From: a virus
Taxonomy: Duplodnaviria > Heunggongvirae > Uroviricota > Caudoviricetes
Virus record (IMG/VR): IMGVR_UViG_3300044638_009648
DNA length: 64,000 bases
Direction: 5' to 3' (one strand)
Shown here in pieces: positions 12,976 through 61,103 of the stretch (positions are counted from its first letter, which is position 1; every line of letters starts with the position of its first letter). Below the pieces are notes generated by a model. That model was given only the letters and a program-made list of their open reading frames with translations, was not told where the DNA came from and did not search any database. Position numbers and translations under genes: made by a program.

Positions 12976-13776
12976 ATGAAAGACAAAATTACATCAATTC
13001 CCTTCAATCAAGAAGAAATCGCAACTTATCTCAAAGATATTCGCAAAATAAAAGTTATGACTCCTGAGCGTGAGCGCGAATTAGCTCAACGAATTTTATC
13101 AGGAAATATCTCTCTCGTAGAAAAACGAGAAATCGAACGTGAATTGCTTATTGGTAATCTTAGATTTGTTATTACTGTTGCAAAACAGTACCAAAACCAA
13201 GGTTTGGAATTGGCCGATTTAATTGCAGAAGGTAATTTAGGTTTACTTAAAGCTGTTGAAAAGTTTGATTGGTCGCAACAATTGCGATTTATTTCTTATG
13301 CGGTATGGTGGATTCGTCAAGCTATATTGCAATCGTTGAACGAAAATTCTAGAACAATTCGACTTCCGGTCAATGTTGTTCAAGAATTGCAAAAAGCAAA
13401 AAAACTCGTTGAAAATAACGGTCAAGACCTGCCCGATAAATTTGCGACTTTACCATATACAATAAATTATGATTCTCCATTAAATGAAGAAGGAGATACT
13501 TTGTTGGATGTATTAAAAAACCCAGATGCGGCAATGCCTGACTCTATTTTTGATACTAAAGAAATGTTGAAAGATAAGCTTTTAAACGTAATGAATATTT
13601 TAGATAATCGTGAACGAGTAATTATTGAGGATTACTTTGGTATTTCAGGTCAAACAAGAACTTTGGAGGACATCGGAAACGATTTTCAACTAACGAAAGA
13701 AAGGGTCCGTCAAATTAAAGAAAAAGCTTTACGAAAACTTCGTAATGAATCTGGACAATTGTTTGAATACCTTTAA
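12976..13776 (+). CDS. Sigma-70 family RNA polymerase sigma factor (regions 2-4)
   Basis: Region 2: DLIAEGNLGLLKAVEKFD and FISYAVWWIRQAI. Region 4: LEDIGNDFQLTKERVRQIKEKALRKLR. Confidence 0.85.
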   Translation: MKDKITSIPFNQEEIATYLKDIRKIKVMTPERERELAQRILSGNISLVEKREIERELLIGNLRFVITVAKQYQNQGLELADLIAEGNLGLLKAVEKFDWSQQLRFISYAVWWIRQAILQSLNENSRTIRLPVNVVQELQKAKKLVENNGQDLPDKFATLPYTINYDSPLNEEGDTLLDVLKNPDAAMPDSIFDTKEMLKDKLLNVMNILDNRERVIIEDYFGISGQTRTLEDIGNDFQLTKERVRQIKEKALRKLRNESGQLFEYL

Positions 13777-32800: not shown

Positions 32801-33771
32801 GTGCACAAGGGGCAAGAGGTCCCCAAGGAGCAACAAATGGAGCTTTACAAGGTGCTACAGGAGCTCAAGGTTCCAGGGGACCACAGGGAGCTACAGGTTT
32901 TCAAGGTTTTCCTGGTTTTACTGGATTTCCGGGTGCCAATGGACCCCAGGGTGCTCAGGGAGCCCAGGGTGCTAGAGGTCCACAAGGAGCTCAAGGGGCA
33001 CGAGGTCCTCAAGGTGCACAGGGTGGCACGGGTCCTGTGGGTAACACTGGAGCAAGGGGTGCCCAAGGGGCAACGGGTAGTCAAGGATTCCAAGGAGCAC
33101 AAGGTTCTTTAATTCTTGGACCTCAAGGGGCACAGGGTGCCACAGGAGCTACCGGTGCTCAGGGACCCACTGGTCCAACCGCACCAAGTTGTGTTGCACA
33201 TTTTGTGTCTAACTGTTATAGTAGTGACGTGGATGCTTGTGGTGCGAAATCTCCAGGCGATTATCAAACGATTTATTCCCCTTGTGCTGTTTTGGCAAAC
33301 GGTTGCCGCCTTTGGGCAGACTCTTTATGTACAACTGGTTGCCCTTGTGACCCTGGGTTTGAATACATATCTGACGGTGTTAATGTTTGGTTAGTAGACG
33401 CTAACTGCGAATTAGCTAATGAGACACCCTGTACCTCTGTTTCTGATGGTAGATTAAAAACAAACGTGTTAACCATTGATAATTCTTTGGAATTATTGCT
33501 GAAGTTGGAACCTGTAGAATTTGATTGGAAAGAAATAACTCCGGAATACAAATATTTTGTGGAGAAAGGTATTACCCACTCTGTTGGGTTTATTGCTCAG
33601 CAAGTAAAAACTGTTGTTCCCGAAATTGTTCAAATGCGACCAAACGGATATTATACGGTTGATTACCCCCGAGTTAACGCTTTACTTGTTGAAGGTATAA
33701 AGGAACAACAAGTATTTATTGAGGACTTGGAAAAAGACATAACTGAACTTGAAAAATTATTTGAATTGTAA
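29890..33771 (+). CDS. Collagen-like fibre protein 1 (1293 aa) with Cys-rich module and C-terminal peptidase S74 intramolecular-chaperone domain
   Basis: About 940 residues of uninterrupted Gly-X-Y ([16 protein letters not shown]...). The C-terminus SDGRLKTNV ... [16 protein letters not shown] matches the endosialidase / tail-fibre auto-cleaving chaperone domain (S-D-x-R-L-K-x-N). Confidence 0.85.
30349..33180 (+). repeat. Gly-X-Y (GGN-GCN-CAR) triplet-repeat tract of fibre 1
   Basis: Direct 9-nt periodicity visible in the sequence. Confidence 0.9.
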
Positions 33772-36700
33772 TGGCTATTGATGTCATCATTTATCCCACT
33801 GGTGTGACTGGTAATGCAATCCCTCAAATTATTTTTGAGGATGCTGCTGGTGCCAAAATGGGTTTGATATATGAGGGGCCAAATTTAAGGTTTTCAGCTT
33901 CAACATCCATATCCTTGGTAACGGTAAGCCCAACGTCTGTTATTACTTCGGGTACTAGCGTTAGTAACGCCACAACTGGTATTTGGGCTGGGGAAACTTT
34001 GATGATTAACACCATTGGTGAATGGGTGGGACCACCCTTTAATATTCAAGGTTCTCAAGGAGCTCAAGGAGCAATAGGTTCCCAAGGAGCCCAAGGTGCT
34101 CAAGGAGCTCAAGGTGCTAAAGGAGCGCAAGGTGCCATAGGACCTCAAGGCGCCCAGGGTGCTCAAGGTGCTCAAGGCGCCCAAGGCGGTGTACAAGGTG
34201 CGCAAGGAGGCACTGGCGCTCAAGGAGCACAAGGTGCTCAAGGAGCACAAGGTGCTGTACAAGGAGCCCAAGGAGCTACCGGTGGCCAGGGAGCTCAGGG
34301 AGCACAGGGAGCACAGGGAGGTGTCCAAGGAGTCCAGGGTGCAACCGGAGCTCAAGGTGCCCAAGGAGCCGCTGGAACCCAAGGAGGAGTTCAAGGGGTG
34401 CAAGGTGCCACAGGAGGTCAAGGAGCTCAAGGAGCTACCGGTGCTCAAGGAGCAACTCAAGGTGCTATCGGTCCCCAAGGGGCACAAGGAGCACAAGGTG
34501 CCGCGGGAACTCAAGGTGGTGTCACTGGAGCTCAAGGAGCAAAAGGATTTCAAGGAGCACAAGGAGCACAAGGTGCCCAAGGTGGCGTCACTGGAGCCCA
34601 AGGAGCTCAAGGAGCGCAGGGGGCACAAGGTTCCCAGGGAGCTCAGGGTGCACCTCAAGGTGCTACAGGAGGTCAAGGTGCCCAAGGTGCACAAGGTGGA
34701 ATTGGTGCTCAGGGTGGAACTACTGGTGCCCAAGGTGCTCAAGGTGCTACAGGAGCTCAAGGTGCTACAGGAGCTCAAGGAGCAACTCAAGGTGTCCAGG
34801 GTGCCACAGGTTTTACAGGAGGTCAAGGTGTCCAAGGCGCACAGGGTGGTGTTCAAGGAGCCCAAGGTGCCATAGGAACACAAGGTGCTACTGGAGGTCA
34901 AGGAGCGCAAGGGTCTCCCACAGGAGGTCAGGGAGCTACAGGCTCACAGGGTGCACAAGGTTCTCAAGGGGCCCAAGGACTAGCAACAGGCTCTCAAGGG
35001 GCACAAGGTGCCCAAGGAGGACAAGGAGCTCAGGGAGCCCAAGGTGGCGTAACTGGAGCTCAAGGAGCTCAAGGAGCTCAAGGCGCTCAAGGTGCTATTG
35101 GTGCCCAGGGTGGTGTTGTCGGAGCCCAAGGTGCTATAGGAGCGCAAGGTGCTACGGGAGCTCAAGGTGCACAAGGTGGTGTTACAGGTGCTCAAGGAGC
35201 TACAGGCGGACAAGGAGCTCAAGGAGCAACCGGTGCTCAAGGATTACCTACAGGAATTCAAGGCACAACAGGCGCTCAGGGAGCTCAAGGTGCTACTGGT
35301 GCCCAAGGTTTACCCACAGGAGCCCAAGGTGCTCAAGGAGCCACTGGAGCTCAAGGTGCTACTGGTGCCCAAGGATTGCCCACGGGAAACCAAGGTGCTC
35401 AAGGTTCCCAAGGAGCACAAGGGGCTCAAGGTGCACAAGGTGGTGTAACAGGCGCTCAAGGAGCCCAAGGTGCCCAAGGTGCCACTGGTGCCCAAGGTGC
35501 ACAGGGTGGTGTCACTGGAGCCCAGGGCGGGACAGGTGGACAAGGAGCACAAGGCGCTCAAGGAGCCACAGGTTCTCCCCAAGGAGCTCAGGGAGTTCAA
35601 GGGGCTACTGGTGCCCAAGGACAAGTTGGTGCGCAAGGTTTACCCACAGGAGATACCGGAGGTCAAGGAATTCAAGGGTCACAAGGTGCCACTGGTGCCC
35701 AAGGCTCCGTACAAGGAGCCACAGGCTCTCAAGGTATTACAGGAGCACAAGGTGCCGTAGGAGCCCAAGGTGGTCCAACTGGAGCTCAAGGAGCCACAGG
35801 AGCACAAGGTGCACAAGGAGCCACAGGAGCTCAAGGAGGTATAACAGGTGCTCAAGGAGCACAAGGAGCCCAAGGAGCTCAAGGCGCAACGGGTGCTCAA
35901 GGAGGTCCAACAGGTTCTCAGGGTGCCCAGGGAGCTCAAGGCGCTCAGGGTGCCACAGGTGCAACTGGAGGTATTACTGGGGCCACAGGGGCACAAGGTG
36001 CTCAAGGACCCCAAGGTGCTCAGGGTGCCACAGGGGGCGTTACTGGAGCTACTGGAGCTACTGGTGCACAAGGACCACAAGGTGCTCAAGGTGCTGCTGG
36101 ATTACCCCAAGGCGCACAAGGACCACAAGGTGCTCAAGGTGCTCAAGGTGCTAAAGGAGCGCAAGGTGCCATAGAAGGTGCCGATGGTCTTCAAGGTTCT
36201 CAAGGACCCCAAGGAGCTCAAGGAGCTCAAGGAGGCGGAACAGGTGCTCAAGGCGCACAGGGACCCCAAGGAGCACAAGGAGCTACTGGTGCTCAAGGAG
36301 GACCTATGGGTGCCACAGGAGCACAAGGAGCACAAGGAGCACAAGGTGCCACAGGAGCGCAAGGTGCTGTCGTAGGTGCTCAAGGAAACACACCGTTTCC
36401 AGGCGCTACAGGAGGAACTGGAGCACAAGGATTGCCAACTGGAGGTCAAGGATTTCAAGGTAGCCAAGGATTTCAAGGAGCTACTGGTGCCCAAGGAGGT
36501 GCACAAGGAGCACAAGGAGCAATAGGAGCCCAAGGGGCTCAAGGAGCCACAGGGGCTCAGGGAGGCGTAACAGGTGCTCAAGGTGCACAAGGCGCACAAG
36601 GACCACAGGGTGCCACAGGTGCTCAAGGAGGCCCAACAGGAGCCCAGGGTTCTTTAGGTCCCCAGGGTGCACAAGGAGCACAAGGAGCGACAGGTGGTGT

Positions 36701-37358
36701 GACAGGTGCACAAGGTCCCCAAGGTGCACAGGGAGCACAAGGCCCCCAAGGGGAAAATAGTGCAACCCCTGGCTCACAAGGAGCTCAAGGTCAAGTAGGT
36801 GAATTACCTGGAGCACAAGGTGCATCCAATGCAACAACAGGAGCCCAGGGGGCTACACCTGGAGCAGGACCACAGGGAGCTCAGGGAGCACAAGGTTCTG
36901 AAGGTATAAAAGGACCCCAAGGTGCGCAAGGACCTAGTACAGGAGGGCCTCCAGGACCCCAAGGTGCCCAAGGAGCCCAAGGTGCACAAGGACCAACTGG
37001 ACCAACTGGACCACCCTCAGATTATAGATTAAAAACTAATGTTATCCCATTGACAAATGTTACAAGTAAAGTTATTGACATGCGAGGGGTCAAATTTGAA
37101 TGGCTAGAAAATATCCCCCAATTGGAACATATACCAGAAGCCCAACATTTTTATCTCAAGGGAAAAAGTATTGGATTTATTGCCCAAGAAATTGAAAAAA
37201 TATTTCCAGAATTAGTTTTGGAAGATAGATATGGGTATAAGAACATTCAGTACGATATTTTAGTTGCCATTGGCGTTGCTGCTGTAAAAGAAAATAATGA
37301 AAGAATTATTCTATTGAAAAATAAAATCAAACCCTTAAAATCATTTATAGGTGGCTGA
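33771..37358 (+). CDS. Collagen-like fibre protein 2 (1195 aa) with C-terminal S74 chaperone domain
   Basis: Gly-X-Y repeats with frequent one-residue register interruptions (GGVTG, GLPTG, GATQG). C-terminus [14 protein letters not shown] ... [16 protein letters not shown]. Confidence 0.85.
34048..37016 (+). repeat. Gly-X-Y triplet-repeat tract of fibre 2
   Basis: Seen directly in the sequence. Confidence 0.9.
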
Positions 37359-40300
37359 GAATATCATTATTTTTCCCGGAAGTGCTATGTTTGAATTTGT
37401 TGACTCTGGGTCAACAACTTCGAACTGGACTTTTATTGATTCAGGAACAGGATTGAGATTTCAGAATAATTCCTATGATTTATTAGACATTGTTGATAAT
37501 AGTATCAGCTTTAGAGTTAGATATGCCAATTTGTATGTAGATTCCATAACAAACAATTTTGGAAAAATTATTGATGGAACTGGATGGTTAGGAAACCAAA
37601 ACGCTGGGCCCCAAGGTGCACAAGGTGCTAAAGGACCAACTGGTGCAACTGGAGCAACTGGTGCGATAGGAAATATAGGTGCTCAAGGTGCTCAGGGGGC
37701 TACTGGTCCAACCGGAATCCAAGGGGCTACAGGAGCTCAAGGTGCTCAAGGATTTCAAGGAGCTCAAGGAGCTCAAGGTGCTAATGGAGCTCAAGGAGCT
37801 ACAGGACCACAAGGCGCTCAAGGGTTTCAAGGCGCTCAAGGGGCACAAGGAGCAATTGGTGCACAAGGTGCTCAAGGATTTCAAGGAGCTCAAGGAGCTC
37901 AAGGTGGTATTGGTTCCCAAGGAGCCCAGGGGGGTCAAGGATTTCAAGGAGCTCAAGGTGCTCAAGGCGCGGTAGGAGCTCAAGGAGCCCAAGGTGGTCA
38001 AGGATTTCAAGGTATAACCGGAAGCCAGGGAGCAGTTGGAGCACAAGGTGCTCAAGGAGGTCAAGGATTTCAAGGTGCCCAAGGAGCACAAGGTGGAACG
38101 GGAGCGCAAGGAGCGCAAGGAGCGCAAGGAGCTCAAGGTGTTTTGGGTATACAAGGGGCAGTCGGAGCCCAGGGCGCACAGGGAGGTCAAGGATTCCAAG
38201 GTGCTCAAGGAGCCCAAGGTGCAACTGGTGCCCAGGGAGCACAAGGAGGTCAAGGATTTCAAGGAAATATAGGTTCTCAAGGTTCAACTGGAGCACAGGG
38301 TGCTCAAGGTGGACAAGGATTTCAAGGAGCTCAAGGTGGTCAAGGATTTCAAGGAGCTCAAGGAGCCCAAGGAGCCCAAGGAGTCCAAGGTTCTGTGGGT
38401 GGACAAGGAGCGCAAGGAGCACAGGGTGCACAAGGAGGTCAAGGATTTCAGGGAGCAACTGGTGCCCAAGGAGCTATTGGTGCCCAGGGCGCACAGGGAG
38501 GTCAAGGATTTCAAGGAGCAACTGGTGCTCAAGGAGCTGTTGGTGCCCAAGGAGCACAGGGAGGTCAAGGAGCACAAGGAGTTTTAGGAACACAAGGTTC
38601 CGTTGGGGCACAAGGTGCCCAAGGTGCTCAGGGATTTCAAGGGGCTCAAGGAGTGCAAGGTGCTACAGGCGCCCAAGGAGCACAGGGAGGTCAGGGATTC
38701 CAAGGGGCACAAGGAGCGCAAGGTGCAGTAGGAGCACAAGGCGCACAGGGCGGTCAAGGATTCCAAGGTAATGTTGGTGCTCAGGGTGCGGTAGGAGCTC
38801 AAGGAGCTCAAGGTGGTCAAGGATTTCAAGGTGCTACTGGAGCCCAAGGTGCGGTAGGAGCTCAAGGTGCCCAAGGTGGTCAAGGATTTCAAGGAGCGCA
38901 AGGAGCAAATAGTGTAACTGGCGCACAAGGCGCACAGGGTGGTCAGGGTGCTCAAGGTATTCCTGGATTCCAAGGAGCCCAAGGCGCCACAGGAGCTCAA
39001 GGAGCTCAAGGATTCCAAGGCGCCCAAGGAGCTCAAGGAGCCGTCGGAGCACAAGGAGCACAAGGTGGACAAGGTTTCCAAGGTGGTACTGGAGCCCAAG
39101 GAGCAACAGGGGCACAAGGAGCCCAAGGTGGTCAAGGATTTCAAGGAGCCCAAGGGGCTCAAGGAGCAACAGGGGCACAAGGAGCCCAAGGTGGTCAAGG
39201 ATTTCAAGGAGCCCAAGGAGCCCAAGGAGCAACTGGAGCTCAAGGCGCTCAAGGAGGTCAAGGATTCCAAGGAGCCCAAGGAGCTACGGGGGCACAAGGT
39301 CCCGTTGGGGCACAAGGTGGTCAGGGAGCTCAAGGTGTGTTAGGTACTCAAGGTACTGTTGGTGCCCAGGGAGCACAAGGTGGTCAAGGATTTCAAGGTG
39401 TTGCTGGAAATACAGGTGAAGTTGGAGCACAGGGTGCTCAAGGCGCTCAAGGATTCCAGGGAGCCCAAGGAGCAGGCGGTGGTACTGGACCACAAGGTGC
39501 TCAAGGCGGTCAAGGATTCCAAGGAGCTCAAGGAGCTACAGGAGCTACAGGAGCGCAAGGGGCACAAGGTGGACAAGGTTTCCAGGGAGGTACTGGCTCA
39601 ACAGGTTCACAAGGTTCACAAGGAGCTCAGGGTGGACAAGGATTCCAAGGTCCTCCAGGTGATTCGGGAGGAACTGGCTCAGTTGGAGCTCAAGGTGGTC
39701 AAGGAGGGCAAGGACTTCCAGGAGTTACAGGACCACAAGGTTCACAAGGAGCTCAGGGTGGGCAAGGTTTTCAGGGAGCACAGGGGCCTATTGGTTCACA
39801 AGGTTCGCAAGGAGCTCAAGGTGGTCAAGGTTTTCAGGGTAATGTAGGTGCAACAGGCGCTCAAGGCGCTCAAGGTGCTCAAGGAGGTCAGGGATTCCAA
39901 GGAGCAACTGGAGCAGTGGGTCCACAAGGTGCGCAAGGTTCCCAGGGTGGACAAGGATTTCAAGGGGCTATAGGTTCCCAAGGGGCGACTGGAGCTCAAG
40001 GAGCCCAGGGAGCTCAAGGATTCCAGGGTCCACTGGGTGCTCAGGGTGCTACCGGGGTTCAAGGGGCTCAAGGTGGGCAAGGATTCCAAGGAGCACAGGG
40101 CACTCTAGGTCCGACAGGAGCTCAAGGAGCCACGGGTGCCCAAGGATTCCAAGGTGCCACCGGAGCCAAGGGTTTAGCGGGGTCAACCGGAGCACCAGGT
40201 TCACCAGGTCCTCAGGGAGCTCAAGGAGCTCAGGGAGCACAAGGATTCCAAGGTGCTCAAGGTGGCCAAGGATTTCAAGGTGCTGCTGGTGCAATTACTA

Positions 40301-40770
40301 TAGGAGCACAAGGCCAACAAGGAGCGCAAGGAGCCAAAGGAAGTGTAGACGGGGCTCAAGGTGCCTCTGGTGGTACAGCAACGGGTTTTCAGGGCGCGCA
40401 AGGAACAACAGGTCCAAGTGGAGCTCCAGGCCCAACGGGTCCCTCAGATTACAGATTGAAAAAAAATGTCGAAAATATTACTTCAGCACTAGACTTGGTT
40501 CAAAAACTTAGGGGTGTAAGATATAATTGGATACCTGGTATAAACAAAGATACTAGTGCTGTTGAAATTGGGTTTATTGCCCAAGAAATTGGTGAATATA
40601 TTCCTGAAGTTTTATTTGGTTCAGAAAATACACAATATGGTGTGAGATATAAGGAAGTTGTTGCTGTTACAATTGAAGCTATCAAAGAGCAAGAATCCAA
40701 AATCAGTGAACTTGAAAAGAGATTACAAGCAGTTTTGGATAAAGCACAACAAAAAGGTCTGATTATTTAA
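37351..40770 (+). CDS. Collagen-like fibre protein 3 (1139 aa) with C-terminal S74 chaperone domain
   Basis: Gly-X-Y repeats organised as a 7-triplet (21 aa / 63 nt) higher-order unit ...[13 protein letters not shown].... C-terminus [13 protein letters not shown] ... [16 protein letters not shown]. Confidence 0.85.
37603..40443 (+). repeat. Gly-X-Y triplet-repeat tract of fibre 3 (63-nt higher-order periodicity)
   Basis: Seen directly in the sequence. Confidence 0.9.
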
Positions 40771-53130: not shown

Positions 53131-53499
53131 ATGAACTCAGAAGTAATTGCAAAGTTGGTTCAAATACAAAACCAGTTCCGTTTTATGCACTGGCAGACCC
53201 AATCTTATGCAAAACATAAAGCGTATGGGAAAATTTATGAAGACCTTACGGATTTAATTGATGGTTTTGTCGAATCTTGTATGGGTAAACATGGTAGACC
53301 AGAGTATATCGGTGGTTTAACACTTGAATTCGAAGACCTATCAGAGATAAGTCTTCAGCAATTTGTTGATGACACAGTGGATTTTTTAATTAGCTTTGAC
53401 CAACTTTTTGATGAAGTTACCGATTCAGATTTATTAAATGTCAGAGATGAAATGCTCCAACTTATAAACAAAGGAAAATATCTATTCACACTAGAATGA
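53131..53499 (+). CDS. Hypothetical protein
   Basis: 122-aa ORF. Confidence 0.4.
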   Translation: MNSEVIAKLVQIQNQFRFMHWQTQSYAKHKAYGKIYEDLTDLIDGFVESCMGKHGRPEYIGGLTLEFEDLSEISLQQFVDDTVDFLISFDQLFDEVTDSDLLNVRDEMLQLINKGKYLFTLE

Positions 53500-53882
53500 A
53501 AAAAAACATTAGAATTACCGAAAAAGCTTTGAGTCATTTAATTGACAACGTCATCAATGAGAAAAAAGTTGTCAAAGAATTTAAGAAAAAAGACGTTGAT
53601 AAAGTAATCGAAGAACAATTTTCAAGATACCAGCTTAGTTCTGGAGAAGTATTTGAAATTCAACATGCATTGAATGATTATTTCAAAATGAAAAAGGTAC
53701 CTATGAAAGTTACTATCGATGAAAGATGGGGACCTGATTCGGTCAAAGCTCTGAAGAAATTCCAAGAAATGGAAAAAATGGAAGTTGATGGTATTCCTGG
53801 TCCAGATGTTTACGACAGAATGGTTGAATTAGGCGTGAGAGGTAATTTCTTCACGAGACTATTAAAGAATTTCGGTGTGTAA
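53496..53882 (+). CDS. Protein with a peptidoglycan-binding (PG_binding_1-like) domain
   Basis: DERWGPDSVKALKKFQEMEKMEVDGIPGPDVYDRMVEL matches the G..T..A...FQ...GL..DG..G..T pattern. Confidence 0.5.
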   Translation: MKKNIRITEKALSHLIDNVINEKKVVKEFKKKDVDKVIEEQFSRYQLSSGEVFEIQHALNDYFKMKKVPMKVTIDERWGPDSVKALKKFQEMEKMEVDGIPGPDVYDRMVELGVRGNFFTRLLKNFGV

Positions 53883-53889
53883 TAATTAA

Positions 53890-53943
53890 ATAAAAAAAAA
53901 TAAAGGGGACTAAAGTAATAATTTTACTTCGTCCCCTTTTTTA
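53890..53943. terminator. Bidirectional intrinsic terminator between convergent genes
   Basis: A-run, AGGGGAC, 20-nt loop with inner stem, GTCCCCT, T-run. Confidence 0.7.
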
Positions 53944-54257
53944 ATTTCTAACTCTTTAGCGGAACCACCCTGAATCTCAAGAATGAGTCTGCCTTCACCA
54001 CAGTAATTTTTACAATTTTCTTCTTTACAAGGTGGGCAATCATGAAAAATTTTAGATATTGTTGTTCCCTCGATGAAAATAATATCTAATGGAATGATGC
54101 ATTTTTTCATCCAAAAACAATTTTCATCCTCATCCATCAAAAACAACATTCCGTTGAACTCGTCTGTAAATCTTCTATTCATCATTCCTTGAGCTTTCTC
54201 GAACTTGCTCGTGACGACTTTGACATGGAATATATTTTCCCCTATTTTTAACCTCAT
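53910..54257 (-). CDS. DUF192-family protein
   Basis: GMLFLMDEDENCFWMKKCIIPLDIIF matches the DUF192 core (GMLF ... FWMKNT.IPLDI.F). Confidence 0.55.
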   Translation of the reverse strand: MRLKIGENIFHVKVVTSKFEKAQGMMNRRFTDEFNGMLFLMDEDENCFWMKKCIIPLDIIFIEGTTISKIFHDCPPCKEENCKNYCGEGRLILEIQGGSAKELEIKKGDEVKLLL

Positions 54258-54270
54258 AGTAATTATAAAT

Positions 54271-54696
54271 ATGAAGGAGAAAATTTATGTTGGAGTAATA
54301 GTCAAAGTAAATGATGAAGTTTTACTTTGTAAAAGGTCTACCAAGGGCTCACTTCCTGGTATGTGGTCTGTTCCAGCTGGAGGTGTTGAAGAAGGTGAAA
54401 CGACTAAAGAAGCCGCTGTTAGAGAGTTTCACGAAGAAACTGACATAATAATTGCATCAGATGATTTAAACTTTGTTGGTCTAGTGCCTAGGACCTCACG
54501 AGACGGAAAGTTTATTAAGGGTTGGATGTATGTTTATCTTTTAGAAAGTAACGCTTTCCTTTATCCAGATTTAGAAAATGCTAAAGACGGTTCAGAACAT
54601 TCTGAGTGTGGTTATTTTACTTTTGAGGATATGTTAGAGTTGAACACTGAAAAGTTTTTTAAAAAGTTATTAGAAGCAATTTTAAATAAGGTTTAA
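54271..54696 (+). CDS. Nudix hydrolase
   Basis: Nudix box GGVEEGETTKEAAVREFHEETDI. Start placed at the internal ATG to avoid overlap with the minus-strand gene. Confidence 0.8.
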   Translation: MKEKIYVGVIVKVNDEVLLCKRSTKGSLPGMWSVPAGGVEEGETTKEAAVREFHEETDIIIASDDLNFVGLVPRTSRDGKFIKGWMYVYLLESNAFLYPDLENAKDGSEHSECGYFTFEDMLELNTEKFFKKLLEAILNKV

Positions 54697-54793
54697 CTTT
54701 TTGGAAGTTAGCATATATTTATTATCTTGACCGAGAGGTTGAAACACCCCCACAAAAAGTTCTACAAGCCATTTGACAAATCCTATATTTGTT

Positions 54794-54801
54794 TTATCTT
54801 T
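54794..54801 (+). promoter_or_regulatory. TATCTTTG -7-type element upstream of the tRNA/ncRNA block
   Basis: Motif in the intergenic region after the Nudix gene, about 40 nt before a hairpin and about 110 nt before the candidate tRNA. Confidence 0.35.
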
Positions 54802-54839
54802 GTGGAACGCTCGGAAGAAGGACTAAGGTCCCTTTCACA

Positions 54840-54887
54840 TCCCACAACGAGTGCTCGAGAGAACATGGTAGTTGTGGGATTTTTTTC
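54840..54887 (+). terminator. Hairpin plus T7 run (terminator or leader structure)
   Basis: TCCCACAAC ... GTTGTGGGA followed by TTTTTTT. Confidence 0.6.
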
Positions 54888-54911
54888 CGGGGGTCGTTCT
54901 TAAAAATATAG

Positions 54912-54985
54912 TGCGGATTAGAGTTCTGGTGAACTCGGAAGTCTCATAAGCTTTCTTCAGGGTTGTTCGATTCAGCCATCCGCTA
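54912..54985 (+). tRNA. Candidate tRNA-Met(CAU)
   Basis: Hand-folded cloverleaf: acceptor TGCGGAT / ATCCGCT (1:72 mismatch); D stem GAGT / ACTC; anticodon stem GAAGT / GCTTT (two G-U pairs) with loop CTCATAA (U33, CAU anticodon); T stem GGTTG / CAGCC with T-loop TTCGATT. The variable loop is 6 nt, one longer than usual. Confidence 0.4.
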
Positions 54986-55860
54986 CAAAAAAAAGTTTGA
55001 TAAGGTACTTGACAAAATCAAAACCGTTATTATACTTTAACAACAAGTCAGGGAAACTTGACGAGTTCTTTGAATTACAAAATAGGCGGTTTAGCGTCTT
55101 TAGATAACCCCAGCGATGGGACTAAAAGGGATGAAGGGTTTAGCGACCTTGGTAATCTCGCAGGACTTCGGTCTTGACAACTAAACAAAGTACCTACGGT
55201 TGAAACCCTGACGGCAAGTGCTGAGGGGATGATGCCACACCGATTTCGTGGAGAGTCGGGGTTGCGGTGGAGACACCAATAGGAAAAGGTACAGGTGACG
55301 GTTTGAGACATCCCGCCGGGTGTTGTAAAGCTGGGTACCAGTCCGAAGGGTTACCACGGGGTTAAACCTACCGTAGTCCTGAGTGACCGTGAACTGGCGG
55401 GTTCACAGAGAGGTGTGAAGCATTTTGTTCCCAAAAGGAGCGGAACTTCTCCCGAAGCACATCTTTCATTCTTCCACAAAGCTACATATCAATGAATGAT
55501 ATTCTAAGATACAAGCAAAAGTCTTCGGGCGTTGATACTGAAAGGTGTCTAATCCTTCAGGTCATCGGACCAATGAAGGCATCAATCGGACCGCAAGTCC
55601 CTTGGTGTTAATTGTGAAACTACTCGTGGGACGGCCATCCCTTAGTGAGCTCGCAAGGCTCAAGAGATAGGAGTATCAGTTGAGTTGGTGTCAACGAAAA
55701 GAGTGGTAGACTCAAATTACCGACACTGGTTGGATACAACAGGCAACTGTTGTGGACCGAGTGGGGAAAGGATAATCCCACTAAAGACTGACCATCTAAG
55801 CTCGTAGTCTCAGAGCATTAGCCGAACCCCCTTCCGTAAGGTTGGGGGTTTTTTTATTTT
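54986..55860 (+). ncRNA. Candidate large structured non-coding RNA (unclassified)
   Basis: About 0.9 kb with no plus-strand ORF. It is markedly GC-enriched relative to flanks (hand count of one 128-nt stretch is about 57% G+C). Many local hairpins, and it ends in a strong intrinsic terminator. Confidence 0.3.
55825..55857 (+). terminator. Intrinsic terminator closing the GC-rich RNA block
   Basis: AACCCCC-ttccgtaagg-TTGGGGG followed by TTTTTTT. Confidence 0.7.
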
Positions 55861-55888
55861 AATATTTGGTAATATAAAAACTCTTTCG

Positions 55889-55903
55889 TATATTTGTTGT
55901 ATG
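55889..55903 (+). promoter_or_regulatory. TATATTTG-N4-ATG promoter/start arrangement
   Basis: Motif at 55889-55896, ATG at 55901. Confidence 0.45.
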
Positions 55904-56215
55904 AAAAAACAAACCACTATGAAATTCAGTTTTCACCAGGTTCAGGTCGAACACGAAAAGTTTGGTTCGCTTGTTCAGGAAAGCTTTTTGAACTTTACCC
56001 AGTTCAAGCTCTTTTTGATGCAAATTCATGGTGCCTTGGAAATGAAAGAAGCCCTTTCGTTTTACAATGGTAGTGACATGTTAATTTACATCCCATACAA
56101 GTTTCTGGTTGATTCAATTATTTTGACTAAGAGCCAAGAAGCGGATGGTGAAACCAACATCTCTGAACACTTCCGCTCGAAAATTGAAGCCTTGGTTACT
56201 AAAGAAGAGTCCTAA
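55901..56215 (+). CDS. Hypothetical protein
   Basis: ATG 4 nt after TATATTTG; terminator downstream. Confidence 0.4.
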   Translation: MKKQTTMKFSFHQVQVEHEKFGSLVQESFLNFTQFKLFLMQIHGALEMKEALSFYNGSDMLIYIPYKFLVDSIILTKSQEADGETNISEHFRSKIEALVTKEES

Positions 56216-56262
56216 CCTCTCTGTTAGGTGGTGGAGCGTCTAACAACCTGTTAGGCCCATTG

Positions 56263-56289
56263 AAGGCCGGATTATTCCGGCCTTTTTTA
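56263..56289 (+). terminator. Intrinsic terminator
   Basis: AAGGCCGG-attatt-CCGGCCTT followed by TTTT. Confidence 0.7.
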
Positions 56290-57081
56290 GTCAAACAAAT
56301 CAGTTATAATAAAACTACGCTTCTGCAAAAGATATAATTTTAATAAATTACCAATTCTTTCTCTATCTCCCCACACATCTTTTACATGATGGCCGATATT
56401 ATCTTCAAGGATTTCATAGTCAAGATTATTAACTATTATTACCCTATCGAAAATATTTTCATATTTAGGTAGTGCCTTAATTTCCTCATCATTTTCTTCT
56501 TTGTTGCGGTATAGTTCATTTAAACCTGGTTCAGTAAAAAAATCAGCATAAATTGCAATTTCGATTTTGTCGTAACTATCAATACTTCCAGCACCGTCAC
56601 ATTCATCACAGTTAAGACGACCCTCTCCCATGCAAATTTCGCACTCAATTTCACCTTCTCCATAACATTTTGGACATTCTATTTCATCTCCCACATAACC
56701 CGAACCATCACATTCATAACACTCTACCTTCCCTCCATCACAATTACCGCAATCATCAGTACCACTTCCATCGCACTCACCACACTCAATTACAGTCTCA
56801 TCGTTGTGTAAAGCATATGAAAATACCATTCCAACATCCGGTATCATTGAATTAACTTCCTCTAAAGTTAAATTTGATTCCAAATTTTCAGAGATAAAAT
56901 AAGTGTAGAAATATAAATAAAAAAAAGCTTCGTCGGGAAATAAATTTATCACAGATGCCATATGGCGAATTTTTCTTAAAAAAATATCAGAAAAAGGGAG
57001 TCGCCCATTTGTTGAATATTTTTCCTTAGCAACCTGTGGTGCCATACCGCCGGCAATTCTGAAAATTTTTTCTTTTGTCAT
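56287..57081 (-). CDS. Cysteine-rich protein with DnaJ-CR-like CxxCxGxG zinc-finger repeats
   Basis: CGECDGSG, CGNCDGGK, CYECDGSG, CPKCYGEG, CEICMGEG, CDECDGAG. Confidence 0.55.
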   Translation of the reverse strand: MTKEKIFRIAGGMAPQVAKEKYSTNGRLPFSDIFLRKIRHMASVINLFPDEAFFYLYFYTYFISENLESNLTLEEVNSMIPDVGMVFSYALHNDETVIECGECDGSGTDDCGNCDGGKVECYECDGSGYVGDEIECPKCYGEGEIECEICMGEGRLNCDECDGAGSIDSYDKIEIAIYADFFTEPGLNELYRNKEENDEEIKALPKYENIFDRVIIVNNLDYEILEDNIGHHVKDVWGDRERIGNLLKLYLLQKRSFIITDLFD

Positions 57082-57612: not shown

Positions 57613-58860
57613 ATGAATACAAAGAAACCATCAGCTATTGTATATGGTTGGCACACATCAGGGGAAACAGTATTAATATCAGACATTTATTGGGAAGAAG
57701 GTCTTCATGATGAAGTTAACATATATTCCTTACCATACACAAATAATGTAATTGAAGATTATACCAAATTCAAACCTGATTTGATAATTAGTTTCGGTGA
57801 AGAAATTGAAATTCCTCATTTTCATTTAACAAGATTTCACATTCATTATGATGAACTCATTCCGGATATTATCCTTGCTAATGTAATTGTTTGTCAATCT
57901 GTTTTTAGAAGCTCAACTAACTTCAGACCACGGTTTTCAATATTTACACCAACCTATAAAACTGGTGAAAGAATTTTTAGAACATACGAAGGTTTGAAAA
58001 ACCAATTATACAATAATTGGGAATGGGTTGTTGTTGACGATTCTCCTGATAATGAAACTTGGGAAAAATTAAGGGAAATTGCATCGAAAGATTATAGAGT
58101 TAAACTTCATAGAATATATCCTTTAACTGGTGGAAATGTTGGCCTAGCTAAAAATAGGGCTGCGCATCTTTGTGACGGGGATTGGATTGTTGAACTTGAC
58201 CACGATGACACATTGACAAGTGAATGCTTATCTACAGCAAATGATGCCATTGCCGCTTACCCCGACGCTGGTTTTATTTATACGGATTGTGCGGAAATGT
58301 ATGATGATGAAGAACCTAAATATTACGACCACGATTGGACAGGTAATTGGTATGCTAGGGAAGATAATTTTTTTGATTTCGGTTATGCTGGGCACACCTG
58401 GGTTGAAGTCGATGGTGAAACTAGACTGGCACACCATTACCCAGATATTAATCCATTAACAATTAGATTTAACATTTCTATGCCTAACCATGCTAAAATG
58501 TGGGATAGAAAGGTTTATCTGGAAATGGGGGGGCACAATAAATTCATCCCTGTTGCCGATGATTTGGAGATTAATATTCGCACTTTTTTGAATACTAAAA
58601 TGATTCACATAAAAAGGGTATTGTATTTGCAGTTCAATAACAGAAACAGTACCGTGGATAATAATTCAACAGATATTAATCGTCGTGCCAGATTAATCAA
58701 AGACCATTATGACAAAGCGGTTCATGACAGAATCGAAGAGTTAGGTTTTGAGGATTGGAATTGGGATAGTGAAAAACTTCACTCCCAAAAATTTCAAAAC
58801 TCCGGTGGTCCTCGCCGTTATTTTGAGGATGAACAAGTAATGAATTACATTTATGAATAA
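57613..58860 (+). CDS. Family-2 (GT-A fold) glycosyltransferase
   Basis: FSIFTPTYKTGERIFRTYEGLKNQLYNNWEWVVVDDSPDNET, the canonical GT2 N-terminus with DxD. Confidence 0.7.
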   Translation: MNTKKPSAIVYGWHTSGETVLISDIYWEEGLHDEVNIYSLPYTNNVIEDYTKFKPDLIISFGEEIEIPHFHLTRFHIHYDELIPDIILANVIVCQSVFRSSTNFRPRFSIFTPTYKTGERIFRTYEGLKNQLYNNWEWVVVDDSPDNETWEKLREIASKDYRVKLHRIYPLTGGNVGLAKNRAAHLCDGDWIVELDHDDTLTSECLSTANDAIAAYPDAGFIYTDCAEMYDDEEPKYYDHDWTGNWYAREDNFFDFGYAGHTWVEVDGETRLAHHYPDINPLTIRFNISMPNHAKMWDRKVYLEMGGHNKFIPVADDLEINIRTFLNTKMIHIKRVLYLQFNNRNSTVDNNSTDINRRARLIKDHYDKAVHDRIEELGFEDWNWDSEKLHSQKFQNSGGPRRYFEDEQVMNYIYE

Positions 58861-60013
58861 CAAAAAAGCAAAAATTGTACTTAATGCAATGGTGGCCAAT
58901 GAGGCCAGAACCATTACCAGAATGTTGGAATCTGTATATCAATACATTGATTATTGGGTTATACAGGACAATGGTTCTAAAGATGGTACACAGGACATAA
59001 TTAGAAACTTCTTTGAGGAAAAAGGAATACCAGGTTTTTTATATGAAACCGAATGGTTGTTTCCTGGATTCAACAGAGACCATGCTTTACAAGAATGTTT
59101 GAAAGCTGACCATGGTTGTGATTGGATTTTGCGAATGGATGCAGATGAAAGATTGGAAGTGGACTCTGATTTTGATTGGTCAATATTGGAAGATACAAAT
59201 ATTGATTCTTTTAATATCATTGTCAGAAGTTTCAACACTAGGTATTTCAGGACCTGGATGTGGAATGCCCGCAGACCTTGGTTTTTTCAACATGACAAAC
59301 GGCATGAAACAATTCATCTGCCAGAGGTTGGTGAATCATTCCAACGAATTACACTACCTGAAAGTTTTAGACACATTGTTACCAATGATGGACAAACTTG
59401 GTTTGCACCCAGGAAGTTTCTAAGAGATGCCCTGGAACTTGAAATTGATAAAGTTGTGGGTAACACCATACTTGAAGACCATTATCATTTATGGTATGTC
59501 GGGAAAAGTTATGCTGATTGTTACGGAAAACCTGATGAATTAGCTTTTGGAAAAGACCACTCTGATGAATATGCTCGTAGGGCAATTTATTACTTTAAAC
59601 ATTTTCTTAGGGTATCTCATAATTATTGGGAAACCAAAAAACCTGCAAGACATGATGAAATGGCTTACATGACTTTCATTCTTATTGCTGCAGCAATGGA
59701 TTTTCGTGGAGAAACTGAAGAAGCGTTGGGTATGTTTCCACAAGCCAAAGCATTTGCTCCTGAACGAAATGAACATTTGTTGTATTGGGCTATAATGTTG
59801 GAAAAACATGGAAAACATGATAAAGCATTAGAATTGGTTGATATGATGATGGTACCGGAAAAGAAAAATCCATTCCCTAATTTATGTTTTCTGATTGAAA
59901 ATCGTGCTTATACTGACACCTCAAATTTTTTGGTGGAGTGGAAAGAACACTTATTAAAAAGAATCAATGAACCTATTTTAAGTAACGAAGGTGTTGTCTT
60001 TGATTTCGAATAA
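58853..60013 (+). CDS. Glycosyltransferase family 2-like protein
   Basis: KIVLNAMVANEARTITRMLESV ... WVIQDNGSKDGT. Confidence 0.55.
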   Translation: MNNKKAKIVLNAMVANEARTITRMLESVYQYIDYWVIQDNGSKDGTQDIIRNFFEEKGIPGFLYETEWLFPGFNRDHALQECLKADHGCDWILRMDADERLEVDSDFDWSILEDTNIDSFNIIVRSFNTRYFRTWMWNARRPWFFQHDKRHETIHLPEVGESFQRITLPESFRHIVTNDGQTWFAPRKFLRDALELEIDKVVGNTILEDHYHLWYVGKSYADCYGKPDELAFGKDHSDEYARRAIYYFKHFLRVSHNYWETKKPARHDEMAYMTFILIAAAMDFRGETEEALGMFPQAKAFAPERNEHLLYWAIMLEKHGKHDKALELVDMMMVPEKKNPFPNLCFLIENRAYTDTSNFLVEWKEHLLKRINEPILSNEGVVFDFE

Positions 60014-61103
60014 AAAATACGATTTTGTTATTGTAGGTTCTGGATTTTTTGGGGCAACATGTGCTTATGAACTTTCTAAAAAGTACAAGTGTTTAGTAAT
60101 CGACAAACGTTCTCACGTTGGTGGTAATTGTTACACTGAAAATTTAGAGGACATCCACATCCATAAGTATGGTGCTCACATTTTCCACACTTCAAATAAA
60201 GAAATTTGGGATTGGGTAAATCAATTTGCAGAATTTAAGCAGTTTGTTAACTCTCCAATTGCAAATTATAATGGCGAGCTTTATTCTCTCCCTTTTAACA
60301 TGTGGACCTTTTACCAACTTTGGGGTGTAAAAACTGCTGAAGAAGCTAAAGCTAAAATAGAAAGTCAAAAGTATACTGGTACAATAACTAATCTTGAGGA
60401 GCAAGCCCGAAGCATGGTTGGTGATGACATATACTACAAGCTTATAAAAGGTTATACTGAAAAACAATGGGGAAAAAAATGTACGGAACTTCCAGCGTCT
60501 ATTATAAAAAGATTACCTGTAAGATTTACTTGGGATAATAATTACTTTAACGACAAGTATCAGGGAATTCCAATCGGTGGGTACACTCAGATTTTCGAAA
60601 AATTACTTTCTGGAATAGAAACTCACCTCAACGTAGATTTTTTTGAAAAGAGAAATTACTATGAGTCCATCGCCCACAAGATTATTTATACTGGACCAAT
60701 TGACCAGTTCTTTGATTATGAATTTGGAAGATTGGAATATAGGAGTTTGCGGTGGGAAAATACATACATTTATACTGACAGTTTTCAAGGTCACCCTGTT
60801 GTTAATTACACTGACGAGCAAACTCCATTTACCAGGATATTAGAGCATAAGTTTTTTGATTATCAAAATCAAAAACGAAGTTATGTGAGTAAAGAATTTC
60901 CTTGTGATTATACTGGAGATAATGAACCTTACTATCCGATTAGAGATAATCACAACGTAGAGGTTTATCAAAAGTATAAAGAGCTTGCAGAAAAAAAATC
61001 TCAATATCTATTTGGCGGTAGGTTAGGAACTTATGCTTATTACGACATGCATCAGGTTATTGCCCAAGCATTAAATACGGTTAGTAAGCTGACTCAAACT
61101 TAA
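59991..61103 (+). CDS. glf: UDP-galactopyranose mutase
   Basis: FAD-binding YDFVIVGSGFFGATCAYEL ... VIDKRSHVGGNCYTE ... IHKYGAHIFHT and overall colinearity with Glf. Confidence 0.88.
   Translation: MLSLISNKKYDFVIVGSGFFGATCAYELSKKYKCLVIDKRSHVGGNCYTENLEDIHIHKYGAHIFHTSNKEIWDWVNQFAEFKQFVNSPIANYNGELYSLPFNMWTFYQLWGVKTAEEAKAKIESQKYTGTITNLEEQARSMVGDDIYYKLIKGYTEKQWGKKCTELPASIIKRLPVRFTWDNNYFNDKYQGIPIGGYTQIFEKLLSGIETHLNVDFFEKRNYYESIAHKIIYTGPIDQFFDYEFGRLEYRSLRWENTYIYTDSFQGHPVVNYTDEQTPFTRILEHKFFDYQNQKRSYVSKEFPCDYTGDNEPYYPIRDNHNVEVYQKYKELAEKKSQYLFGGRLGTYAYYDMHQVIAQALNTVSKLTQT

Follow-up and report, generated by a model that had tools for sequence, protein, structure and literature searches.

A tRNA(CAU) gene and a predicted GOLLD RNA in an ORF-free block of an uncultured phage genome

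A stretch of 64,000 nt from a virus of the Caudoviricetes (IMG/VR record IMGVR_UViG_3300044638_009648; hereafter the window, meaning this whole stretch) contains a block of 1.2 kb without a credible open reading frame, whose large RNA is almost certainly a GOLLD RNA (Rfam RF02032). The complete explanation, according to which the block holds RNA genes only, with a promoter (P1), a structured leader and a tRNA(CAU) gene followed by a second promoter (P2), the GOLLD RNA and an intrinsic terminator, is held with high confidence. The locus is a clear member of the already described GOLLD family and nothing categorically new.

Extent and genomic setting of the block

The block comprises the 1204 nt between the end of a Nudix ORF (54696) and the start of the next conserved ORF (55901), i.e. 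54697–55900; all features given below are on the + strand. The longest internal ORFs measured 58 aa (+ strand) and 78 aa (− strand), none of them credible, and the internal ORFs gave no Pfam match at E ≤ 1. The G+C content was 0.51–0.56 across 55100–55499 (200-nt windows, maximum 0.56 at 55200–55399), compared with flank values of ~0.29–0.37 and 0.381 over the entire window. A preliminary description of this DNA had reported about 1.1 kb without a plausible ORF and a sharply different base composition, both of which were thus borne out. The block was found with 99.6–100% identity in four independent JGI metagenome contigs. Genes nearby are Nudix, DUF192, PG-binding and orf104, and the window further encodes a primase, SbcCD, a sigma factor, a DNA polymerase, an RnlA-like protein and tail fibres. 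A phage setting with an adjacent tRNA is a typical, not a defining, context of GOLLD.

Identity of the RNA and predicted transcript map

Comparison of 54600–55900 with Rfam, which had been proposed as a check, returned GOLLD (RF02032) at 55408–55816 with 301.2 bits (E = 3.2e-85; gathering score 150 bits), spanning model positions 1–416 of 416 without truncation. This was the sole significant match at E ≤ 10, the four other listed matches having E ≥ 5. In its core the preliminary description was right in placing a large structured non-coding RNA, which ends at a terminator of its own, behind a tRNA(CAU), and GOLLD was the first candidate that it had named; its assignment to an unknown class was mistaken in view of the full-length, high-scoring match and of probable close relatives of the clade in the published GOLLD alignment.

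The best promoter-like site of the region, P2 (TTGACA – 16 nt – TATACT, 55009–55036, 11/12 consensus matches), is near-invariant among class A relatives. Together with an intrinsic terminator it brackets a predicted GOLLD transcript of ~813 nt (55043–55855), the 5′ end being inferred from P2 and the 3′ end being the T-run of the terminator; the minimum free energy of this transcript was −282.9 kcal/mol (z = −4.9). The terminator, detected by a terminator scan at 55825–55855, consists of a G+C-rich stem (55825–55849) and T7 (55849–55855). Stem and T-run were kept in 30/30 related copies, with stem sequences that differ by compensating changes, in agreement with the strong terminator read earlier at the end of the block.

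Further upstream, P1 (54773–54800) combines TTGACA (54773) and TATCTT (54795–54800) at a spacing of 16 nt (10/12 consensus matches), and corresponds to the promoter-like element placed earlier at 54794. In 12 class A relatives both hexamers are conserved and the spacer is variable. P1 is followed by a structured leader (54804–54900) with a hairpin at 54820–54831, a long hairpin at 54839–54880 (stem AUCCCACAAC/GUUGUGGGAU), U7 at 54880–54886 and a CGUUCUU motif; the long hairpin and the U7 are the hairpin and T7 run recognised before. The 113 nt from 54800 to 54912, which contain the leader hairpin, folded with −40.6 kcal/mol (z = −3.8). The stem sequence was invariant in 16 copies, with two covarying pairs, and the leader, which occurs once in the window, was confined to loci that also carry the tRNA. 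P1 and the leader form a conserved promoter–leader unit upstream of the tRNA. Assignment of the leader to a structured-RNA class was attempted and rejected: no Rfam match was obtained at E ≤ 10, and its conservation is mainly one of sequence, with the two covarying pairs only.

At 54912–54986, ARAGORN predicted a tRNA-Met(CAT) of 75 nt with a good cloverleaf, a TTCGATT T-loop and a U1·U72 mismatch, in accordance with the tRNA-like cloverleaf, CAU anticodon and T-loop of the preliminary description. The gene is of the Met or Ile2 type and represents an atypical allele. Within the Rfam tRNA clan the best score was 33.2 bits (tRNA-Sec) against a threshold of 47, with none at gathering, and a blastn search of 50,697 phage records gave 78% identity to annotated phage tRNA-Met genes. 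Two tRNA alleles were observed, the atypical one of the window, shared by L165 and L146, and a more canonical one in the other class A relatives. The 3′ end of the tRNA lies 57 nt upstream of the predicted GOLLD start, and no tRNA embedded in the GOLLD linker was found by ARAGORN.

On the favoured map, P1 would drive the leader and the tRNA(CAU), and P2 would then drive the ~813-nt GOLLD RNA up to the terminator. It is possible, though rather unlikely, that P1 instead produces one leader–tRNA–GOLLD precursor, to be processed by nucleases including RNase P, with P2 in a minor part. Such a precursor is consistent with the lack of a terminator between tRNA and GOLLD in the window and with the suggestion in the literature that GOLLD or ROOL is co-transcribed with tRNAs. 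In class B relatives, which are without the tRNA, a P1-type promoter (TTGACgG – 17 nt – TATCTTTGT) is located immediately 5′ of GOLLD, and P1 therefore looks like the ancestral GOLLD promoter. However, the strong leader hairpin plus U7 is terminator-like, P2 is a near-perfect and almost invariant sigma-70-type promoter, and in some relatives an extra GC-rich hairpin plus T-run is inserted between the tRNA and P2. A single precursor would call for another transcript map but leave the identification of the RNA unchanged. With separate P1-leader-tRNA and P2-GOLLD transcripts, as favoured here, the boundaries drawn in the preliminary description hold in part: all elements are present, but two or three transcription units had been lumped together.

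That GOLLD is a long cis-acting leader regulating orf104 (55901–56215) is very improbable. Both are on the same strand and their order is kept in several relatives, but the conserved intrinsic terminator lies in between, orf104 shares 43–57% aa identity with its counterparts in the same relatives in which the RNA is ~91% identical, and GOLLD members are known from many unrelated contexts.

Secondary structure of the two domains

The part of the GOLLD 3′ domain covered by RF02032 (55408–55816) has a conserved secondary structure with covariation. When the Rfam structure was applied to 30 copies, 95.8% of the cells were paired and 41/97 pairs showed changes on both sides, against 6–10 in slid controls and with 0/500 shuffles reaching the same value. 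A long-range (pseudoknot) helix taken from the Rfam structure line, formed by 55530–55539 and 55687–55696, was paired in 100% of the cells, and 4/10 of its pairs had changed on both sides. A helix proposed by RNAalifold, 55087–55105/55524–55545, was rejected; it is G-U-rich, has no two-sided changes and competes with the pseudoknot helix. The linker between P14 and the pseudoknot (55468–55529) consists of an AU-rich variable part (55468–55512) with the lowest conservation of any region (22% invariant) and a flank, AAGCAAAAGUCUUCGGG, at 55513–55529 with the highest (76% invariant). P21a-like and P21b-like hairpins are both present.

The clade-specific 5′ domain is likewise structured, with covariation. 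It is preceded by a 5′ hairpin with a GAAA tetraloop (55047–55062), followed by GAGUUCUUUGAA, which is the form that the leader takes in class A; the stem is compensatory within class A (GUCAGG/CUUGAC, GUCAGG/CCUGAC, GUCGGG/CUCGGU). The domain core (~55085–55406), matched by nhmmer in all relatives, is conserved from GGCGGUUUAGCG on and includes two invariant blocks of 23 nt (55175–55197 and 55281–55303). Its consensus fold has 16 helices with 98.9% of the cells paired, and 28/90 pairs changed on both sides against 1–7 in slid controls; these values are biased towards the structure, which was derived from and scored on one and the same alignment. Covariation in homologs, named earlier as a check on a structured RNA, was thus found in both domains. 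A CGCC loop at 55314–55317 and the GGCG loop of the last 5′-domain hairpin (55396–55399) are candidate kissing partners; 99.2% of the cells can pair, versus 23–56% when slid, and 2/4 pairs changed on both sides. By position, the GGCG loop resembles bridge B4 of the environmental GOLLD RNA env-38 (residues 410–414 with 253–257).

The 5′ domain matched no Rfam family at E ≤ 10. This, and the context that ROOL shares with GOLLD (phages, nearby tRNAs), could be taken to favour another large RNA, be it ROOL, HEARO/omega-RNA, a group I/II intron, RNase P, tmRNA or a ribozyme resembling GOLLD, several of which the preliminary description had considered. Such an identity is highly improbable and found no support: GOLLD alone was significant, with a match to the entire model that scored double the gathering value, neither ROOL nor HEARO matched at E ≤ 10 in 54600–55900, ARAGORN found no tmRNA, no ORF for IscB/IsrB, a reverse transcriptase or a homing endonuclease occurs in or beside the block, and the 5′ domain accompanied the GOLLD 3′ domain in every sufficiently long contig.

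Relatives and non-coding evolution

From viral and metagenome contigs, 30 distinct full-length relatives with 72–96% identity were collected. In the first eight of them the RNA was 84–92% identical, and in four (L052, L043, L038, L064) the flanking proteins were mostly just 40–57% identical at the aa level. Across the GOLLD transcript conservation was 84–97% (40-nt windows), falling to 40–60% in the flanks. Compared with the genes beside it, the RNA is under strong purifying selection. Its variable sites were distributed over the three phases as 114/119/121 (p = 0.90), i.e. with no codon periodicity, whereas the Nudix gene next to it gave 28/19/113 (p = 1e-22). The locus shows non-coding evolution together with a conserved promoter and terminator. 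A decayed protein gene or rRNA fragment, raised in the preliminary description as a possible refutation and compatible with the short ORFs on both strands (at most 78 aa, − strand), has a negligible probability against the lack of a Pfam match (E ≤ 1), of an rRNA family match (E ≤ 10) and of 3-base periodicity, the compensatory substitutions in stems, and the higher conservation of the block than of the flanking genes.

In a blastn search of the 50,697 phage records nothing but the tRNA of the block was matched, and when the SbcC-like protein was used as a tblastn query for close cultured relatives, identities did not exceed 26%. Eight further loci with two oddly spaced 5′-domain motifs (L138, L142, L149, L150, L160, L161, L169, L170) were rejected as chance matches because they had no GOLLD match and represented four unrelated, coding-looking sequences; the scan of genome contigs therefore gave no clue to the host.

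Contact loops and predicted cage assembly

By homology with env-38 (14-mer) and the Streptococcus agalactiae GOLLD (12-mer), the window RNA would fold into two domains and build a closed, RNA-only homo-oligomeric cage. That it forms a multimeric cage is likely, judged by this analogy. The cage would be held by kissing loops (L20 with the linker flank, L21a–L21a′ and L21b–L21b′) and by A-minor contacts, and the variable linker would face its interior.

Equivalences to env-38 were assigned by position, with the Rfam consensus as intermediary and with Supplementary Table 2 for env-38. The machine-read env-38 sequence had 815 nt instead of 833 nt (~18 nt missing), and the offset drifts from ~3 to 13 nt; only the contacts B7, B8 and B9 were mapped, because their bases fixed the offset. 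Mapped in this way, the cage contact loops of env-38 appear to be kept here or switched between palindromes. Loop L20 (CGCAA, 55592–55596) carries a GC that can pair with the GC at 55515–55516 of the linker flank (AAGCAAAAG), a pairing that by position is the equivalent of bridge B7; the L20 GC was kept in 29/30 copies and the flank GC in 30/30 (alignment A2, read by eye). The palindromic loop L21a (cGGCCa, 55632–55637), equivalent to G656/C657 of env-38 (bridge B8), reads GGCC in 21 copies, UGCA in six and CGCA in three, the central GC being constant. In loop L21b (CGCAA, 55652–55656), equivalent to G675/C676/A677 (bridge B9), GC occurs in 21 copies and CG in nine. The L14 loop, the site of the A-minor donors in the solved cages, is CAAAA in 28/30 copies and CCAAA in L166 and L137.

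The states of L21a and L21b were perfectly linked, GGCC occurring with GC, and UGCA or CGCA with CG. Since a self-kissing GC loop is unable to pair with a CG one, the linked states might represent assembly types that are self-compatible and mutually incompatible, and that are moved jointly by recombination as a patch of ~120 nt. We consider this idea speculative and rather doubtful.

Comparison with known systems

GOLLD RNAs occur in phages and prophages near tRNAs, and env-38, which is situated downstream of a Met-tRNA, forms a D7 14-mer (PDB 9MEE) with the linker disordered inside the cage (Kretsch et al., Nature 2025, PMC12286853). Members of the family share a conserved 3′ domain, have a variable 5′ domain and differ in subunit number (PMC12990946). 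Env-38, from a marine metagenome, and the window RNA have homologous 3′ domains (nhmmer E = 4.8e-9, plus the covariance model match). Both are of similar length (833 nt vs ~813 nt), show two domains and an AU-rich linker, and follow a Met-type tRNA in phage-like surroundings; the contact loops of B7, B8 and B9 in env-38 have counterparts in the window RNA. The two RNAs differ in the G+C content of the domains (51% and 46% in the window RNA, 40% and 37% in env-38) and in L21a, which is a 4-nt palindrome (GGCC or UGCA) in the window RNA and a 2-nt GC core in env-38. The 5′ domain of the window RNA is ~50–100 nt shorter, and its comparison with that of env-38 by blastn and nhmmer gave nothing beyond chance. 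Because the 5′ domains are without detectable sequence similarity, cap architecture and subunit number are not readable from env-38; the clade may have a 5′ cap with a fold of its own and, as a result, another subunit number.

The GOLLD RNA of S. agalactiae (700 nt, PDB 9L0R) is a dodecamer in which the 3′ domain (P14–P27) can oligomerise alone and the 5′ domain caps the assembly (PMC12990946). It is without P9, P11a–c and P21b, in contrast to the P21a-like and P21b-like hairpins of the window RNA, and resides in a Gram-positive chromosome or prophage, in contrast to an uncultured freshwater-type phage. The environmental sequences of Rfam and Kretsch et al. were compared over the first alignment block only, in which URS0000631864_12908 and URS000070E2B3_12908 are near-identical to the clade over the first ~35 aligned 3′-domain positions (GAGAGGUGUGAAGCAUUUUGUU..CAAAA); judged by these positions, members or close relatives of the clade are probably already part of the GOLLD family alignment.

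ROOL (RF03087) is likewise a large ornate RNA of phages and prophages that is found near tRNAs and forms RNA-only cages, but it is unrelated to the window RNA in sequence and secondary structure. For the tRNA-gene-associated GOLLD of Mycobacterium (Morgado et al. 2020, as cited in PMC12990946), the account given there places the RNA inside a large tRNA array, with a tRNA sometimes embedded in the linker. The window locus differs from this in its single upstream tRNA, and many members of its clade are tRNA-free.

Implications

Few non-coding RNAs of bacteria or phages match GOLLD in size and intricacy, and the RNA-only cages that it builds are bigger than a ribosome. A function was not found in the literature for any member, including publications after 2025. 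From the context, a host sigma-70-type RNA polymerase would produce the RNA during infection, and the RNA would serve the phage. A tRNA- or translation-related role is the most plausible one from this context, yet a tentative idea that we regard as less likely than not. A strict functional link between GOLLD and the tRNA is weakened, because in ~29/49 related loci the upstream 1.5 kb contain no tRNA.

For annotation, the 1.2-kb region that appears empty in phage contigs of this type can be labelled as tRNA plus GOLLD RNA. The clade is well populated, with 30 distinct full-length copies; its gene order is conserved, the RNA has a promoter and a terminator to itself, and the adjacent tRNA is present or absent. 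It could help to tell a functional from an incidental tRNA link. If the assembly types proved true, the RNAs of co-infecting related phages would be kept out of mixed cages, and bridge B9 would gain its first support by covariation from the GC-to-CG change in L21b. The natural variation of the clade sits exactly on the predicted inter-subunit contact loops and could guide experiments on the assembly and specificity of GOLLD cages.

Identification of the GOLLD RNA

The window was scanned with all 4227 Rfam families at gathering thresholds, and GOLLD (RF02032) was obtained as the single match, at 55408-55816 on the + strand, with 301.2 bits (threshold 150), E = 3.2e-85 and model positions 1-416 of 416 covered. 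The large RNA belongs to the GOLLD family. The Rfam model spans the conserved 3' domain alone; in the family, the 3' domain (P14-P27) is conserved and the 5' domain (P1-P13) is variable (PMC12286853, PMC12990946). The GC-rich stretch at ~55085-55406 that was noticed in the preliminary description is the GOLLD 5' domain.

The surrounding block comprises 1204 nt between the end of the Nudix ORF (54696) and the start of the next conserved ORF (55901). As had been read from the sequence, it contains no plausible + strand ORF (longest ORFs 58 aa on the + and 78 aa on the - strand, none with a Pfam match even at E ≤ 1), and its base composition departs from that of its surroundings, with a G+C content of 0.51-0.56 over 55100-55499 against ~0.29-0.37 in the flanks and 0.381 in the whole window. 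Four independent JGI metagenome contigs carry the block at 99.6-100% identity, and it was likewise left empty by the gene callers that annotated them. GOLLD was described in 2009 and structures were solved in 2025; the published GOLLD alignment already contains environmental sequences that hardly differ at the start of the 3' domain. The RNA is a new, unannotated member within a well-sampled clade, and its kind is already known.

Transcript boundaries and expression signals

Promoter P2, upstream of GOLLD (55009-55036, + strand; TTGACA - 16 nt - TATACT, 11/12 consensus matches), was the best sigma-70-type site of the region and almost invariant across 12 related loci. The strong intrinsic terminator expected at the block end was located at 55825-55855 (G+C-rich stem + T7); a stem with T-run stands at the 3' end in 30/30 distinct full-length copies, the stem sequences differing and complementarity being kept. 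The expression signals of GOLLD, promoter and terminator, are conserved. From P2 and the terminator, an RNA of ~813 nt is therefore predicted (55043-55855, + strand, start inferred), which fits the family (833 nt for env-38, whose cage structure is solved, and 700 nt for the Streptococcus agalactiae GOLLD; PMC12286853, PMC12990946). It folds at -282.9 kcal/mol (z = -4.9 versus shuffles). Co-transcription of tRNA and GOLLD as one unit is possible but rather doubtful, and the identity of the RNA would be the same either way. Since a conserved terminator stands between it and the downstream gene orf104, the RNA is unlikely to be a cis-leader of that gene. The phage has an RNA polymerase sigma factor gene of its own (12976-13776; phrog_351, E = 6e-53), despite which the promoters before tRNA and GOLLD are host sigma-70-like.

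Comparative analysis of structure and constraint

Viral contigs, metagenome contigs and genomes were searched by pattern scans with one 3' motif and two motifs that are invariant in the 5' domain, followed by an nhmmer profile search. This yielded 50 loci with this GOLLD, among them 30 distinct copies of full length with 72-96% identity to the window (alignment A2); eight loci matching the motifs alone were rejected as chance hits. Every sufficiently long contig with the 5' domain also carries the GOLLD 3' domain. With the Rfam structure including the pseudoknot, 95.8% of cells were paired in the 3' domain and 41/97 pairs were changed on both sides, against 6-10 in slid controls; 0/500 shuffles came up to these figures. 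The pseudoknot helix by itself contributed 4 covarying pairs. In the 5' domain, 98.9% of cells were paired and 28/90 pairs changed on both sides (slid controls 1-7); the fold is a consensus drawn from the alignment on which it was then scored, a circumstance that biases the figures in its favour. Secondary structure is conserved in both domains. Variable sites of the RNA show no preference among the three phases (114/119/121, p = 0.90), and those of the adjacent Nudix gene are in excess at third codon positions (28/19/113, p = 1e-22); the RNA gene evolves as non-coding sequence.

Gene order is kept among relatives (DUF5856, PG-binding, DUF192, Nudix, (tRNA), GOLLD, orf104). Compared with 53131-57081 of the window, the related loci L052, L043, L038 and L064 have neighbour proteins of mostly 40-57% amino-acid identity and an RNA of 84-91% nucleotide identity, so that the RNA, 5' domain included, is more constrained than its neighbours. 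A 2.2 kb alignment drops sharply in identity right outside promoter and terminator. The RNA is under strong purifying selection; among the 30 copies, its least conserved part is the AU-rich linker at 55468-55512 (22% invariant) and its most conserved part the 3' flank of the linker (76% invariant).

A decayed protein gene or rRNA fragment, named in the preliminary description as a reading that would overturn a structured RNA, is refuted by the lack of Pfam or rRNA matches, the lack of codon periodicity and the covariation in both domains. Other RNA classes are unsupported: ARAGORN found no tmRNA, and a permissive Rfam rescan of 54600-55900 (E ≤ 10) gave only chance-level matches beyond GOLLD and no match to ROOL, HEARO, intron, RNase P or tmRNA. 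Of the candidate classes proposed earlier for an RNA then considered of unknown class, GOLLD was thus borne out, and ROOL and HEARO were not.

tRNA, leader and locus classes

The suspected cloverleaf with CAU anticodon was recovered by ARAGORN at 54912-54986 (+ strand) and is sound except for a U1.U72 mismatch. No Rfam tRNA-clan model reached its gathering score there (best 33.2 bits). Annotated tRNA-Met genes of Vibrio, Pantoea and Erwinia phages match the tRNA at 78% identity. Its anticodon stem is without the three G-C pairs typical of initiators; elongator Met and Ile2 are the candidate identities. In 20/49 loci, the window counted (class A), tRNA(CAU) precedes the GOLLD core by 93-168 nt (735 nt in L023); the rest (class B, including L094, L103, L106, L043, L133, L101, L162, L166, L038, L137, L163, L117, L167, L151 and L064) have no tRNA within 1.5 kb upstream. 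Two tRNA(CAU) alleles occupy one position among class A phages: that of the window, common to L165/L146, has the U1.U72 mismatch and falls below Rfam tRNA thresholds, and the others, among them L139:10678-10760, L048, L052 and L007, have a more canonical one. L139 has the other allele despite 95.7% GOLLD identity; tRNA allele does not track GOLLD similarity, and the locus is therefore mosaic. An extra ~70-nt GC-rich hairpin (TAAGTAGACC...GGGCCC...GGGTCTAC + T-run) lies between tRNA and P2 in L158, L156, L145, L143, L136, L164 and L007 and is absent from the window.

Promoter P1 and a ~100-nt leader (54773-54900, + strand) are conserved among class A loci alone, always with the tRNA. Both the promoter-like element and the hairpin with T run described earlier were found here: TTGACA - 16 nt - TATCTT at 54773-54800, then a small hairpin, a long hairpin (54839-54880) with an invariant stem AUCCCACAAC/GUUGUGGGAU, U7 and CGUUCUUUAAAA. 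The leader has no Rfam match, and therefore could be an attenuator, a ~85-nt small RNA or a processing signal. A comparable motif, 'hairpin + GUUCUUU', is also seen after P2 and after the class B promoter. In class B, a P1-type promoter stands directly upstream of GOLLD, with a different, longer 5' leader (variable hairpin, ACGUUCUUU, CCAAC..CCCCCC..GUUGG hairpin, then the core). Because of this promoter position, tRNA, P2 and 5' hairpin look like an insertion between an ancestral promoter/leader and the GOLLD core, or else like a class B loss. So many members of the clade are without the tRNA that its presence in cis is not a strict requirement for GOLLD function.

Genome context

The window comes from an uncultured tailed phage encoding primase, SbcC/SbcD-like nuclease, sigma factor, DNA polymerase, RnlA-like ligase and collagen-like tail-fibre proteins. 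In the SbcC-like protein, identity to the nearest isolates is only 23-26%. Downstream of GOLLD, two family-2 glycosyltransferases and a UDP-galactopyranose mutase (GLF, E = 5e-76) at 57613-61103 form a phage-encoded galactofuranose-type glycan pathway. A 264-aa ORF (56287-57081, - strand), ~29% identical in relatives, has a dense CxxC run and a weak, below-threshold DnaJ_CXXCXGXG match (E = 0.005). Very large ORFs of 1293, 1195 and 1139 aa follow one another over 29890-40770, where the many long ORFs that overlap them in other frames suggest low-complexity repeats; the first (29890-33771) has strong repetitive matches to collagen-like tail-fibre families.

Putative cage contacts compared with env-38

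The GOLLD env-38, from a marine metagenome and downstream of a Met-tRNA, forms a D7 14-mer cage with 5' domains as caps, 3' domains as rings and a disordered linker inside (PMC12286853). Its sequence was taken from Supplementary Table 4 (PMC12286853) in a machine-read copy ~18 nt short, and its contacts, from Supplementary Table 2 (PMC12286853), were mapped positionally through the Rfam consensus. The 3' domains of env-38 and the window RNA are homologous (nhmmer E = 4.8e-9); no similarity between their 5' domains was detectable. Bridge B7 (env-38 U617/C618 with A547/G546) corresponds to the L20 loop CGCAA at 55592-55596 with GC at 55515-55516; read by eye in A2, the L20 GC is present in 29/30 and the flank GC in 30/30 copies. 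Bridge B8 (loop L21a; G656:C657') corresponds to cGGCCa at 55632-55637, and B9 (loop L21b; G675:C676') to CGCAA at 55652-55656. L21a reads GGCC in 21 of the 30 copies, UGCA in 6 and CGCA in 3, L21b GC in 21 and CG in 9, and the states are perfectly linked, GGCC with GC and UGCA or CGCA with CG. In A2, all of them retain a palindromic core.

Kretsch et al. took palindrome-to-palindrome switches as evidence for symmetric intermolecular kissing loops and found L21b too conserved for testing in their alignment (PMC12286853). The GC-to-CG switch provides variation of which that alignment had too little, and as putative covariation it speaks for B9 of the env-38 cage being a symmetric kissing loop. 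L101 and L162 are ~100% identical over the RNA except for 14 differences in 55586-55706, a ~120-nt patch (P20-P21b) in which L162 agrees at 98-100% with L158, a copy distant from it elsewhere. Recombination thus carries the contact region from one lineage to another, and for this reason linkage alone could explain the L21a/L21b co-switch.

In the 5' domain, the loop GGCG (55396-55399) of the last hairpin has its complement in a loop further upstream, CGCC (55314-55317). The two pair in 99.2% of cells (slid controls 23-56%), with 2/4 pairs changed on both sides, tracing to few independent events; they change together in L162, L117 and L167. By position the pair resembles env-38 bridge B4 (residues 410-414 with 253-257); as a candidate kissing loop it may be a tertiary or an inter-subunit contact, within or between chains.

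Proposed function

By homology, copies of the RNA would self-assemble into a closed RNA-only cage that is joined by conserved and palindromic loops and by A-minor donors and encloses the linker. How many subunits would take part depends on the 5' domain and P21 elements (PMC12990946) and hence cannot be predicted. The co-switching of L21a and L21b, the putative kissing loop of the 5' domain, the P1 leader and the two tRNA alleles are tentative side findings, of modest interest and mainly to specialists. For GOLLD, tRNA encapsulation, ribosome binding and storage of embedded tRNAs have been put forward (PMC12286853, PMC12990946); a literature search found no published demonstration of any GOLLD function. 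From its context, the RNA is probably expressed by the host RNA polymerase during infection and may have a role beneficial to the phage, possibly tied to tRNAs or translation.
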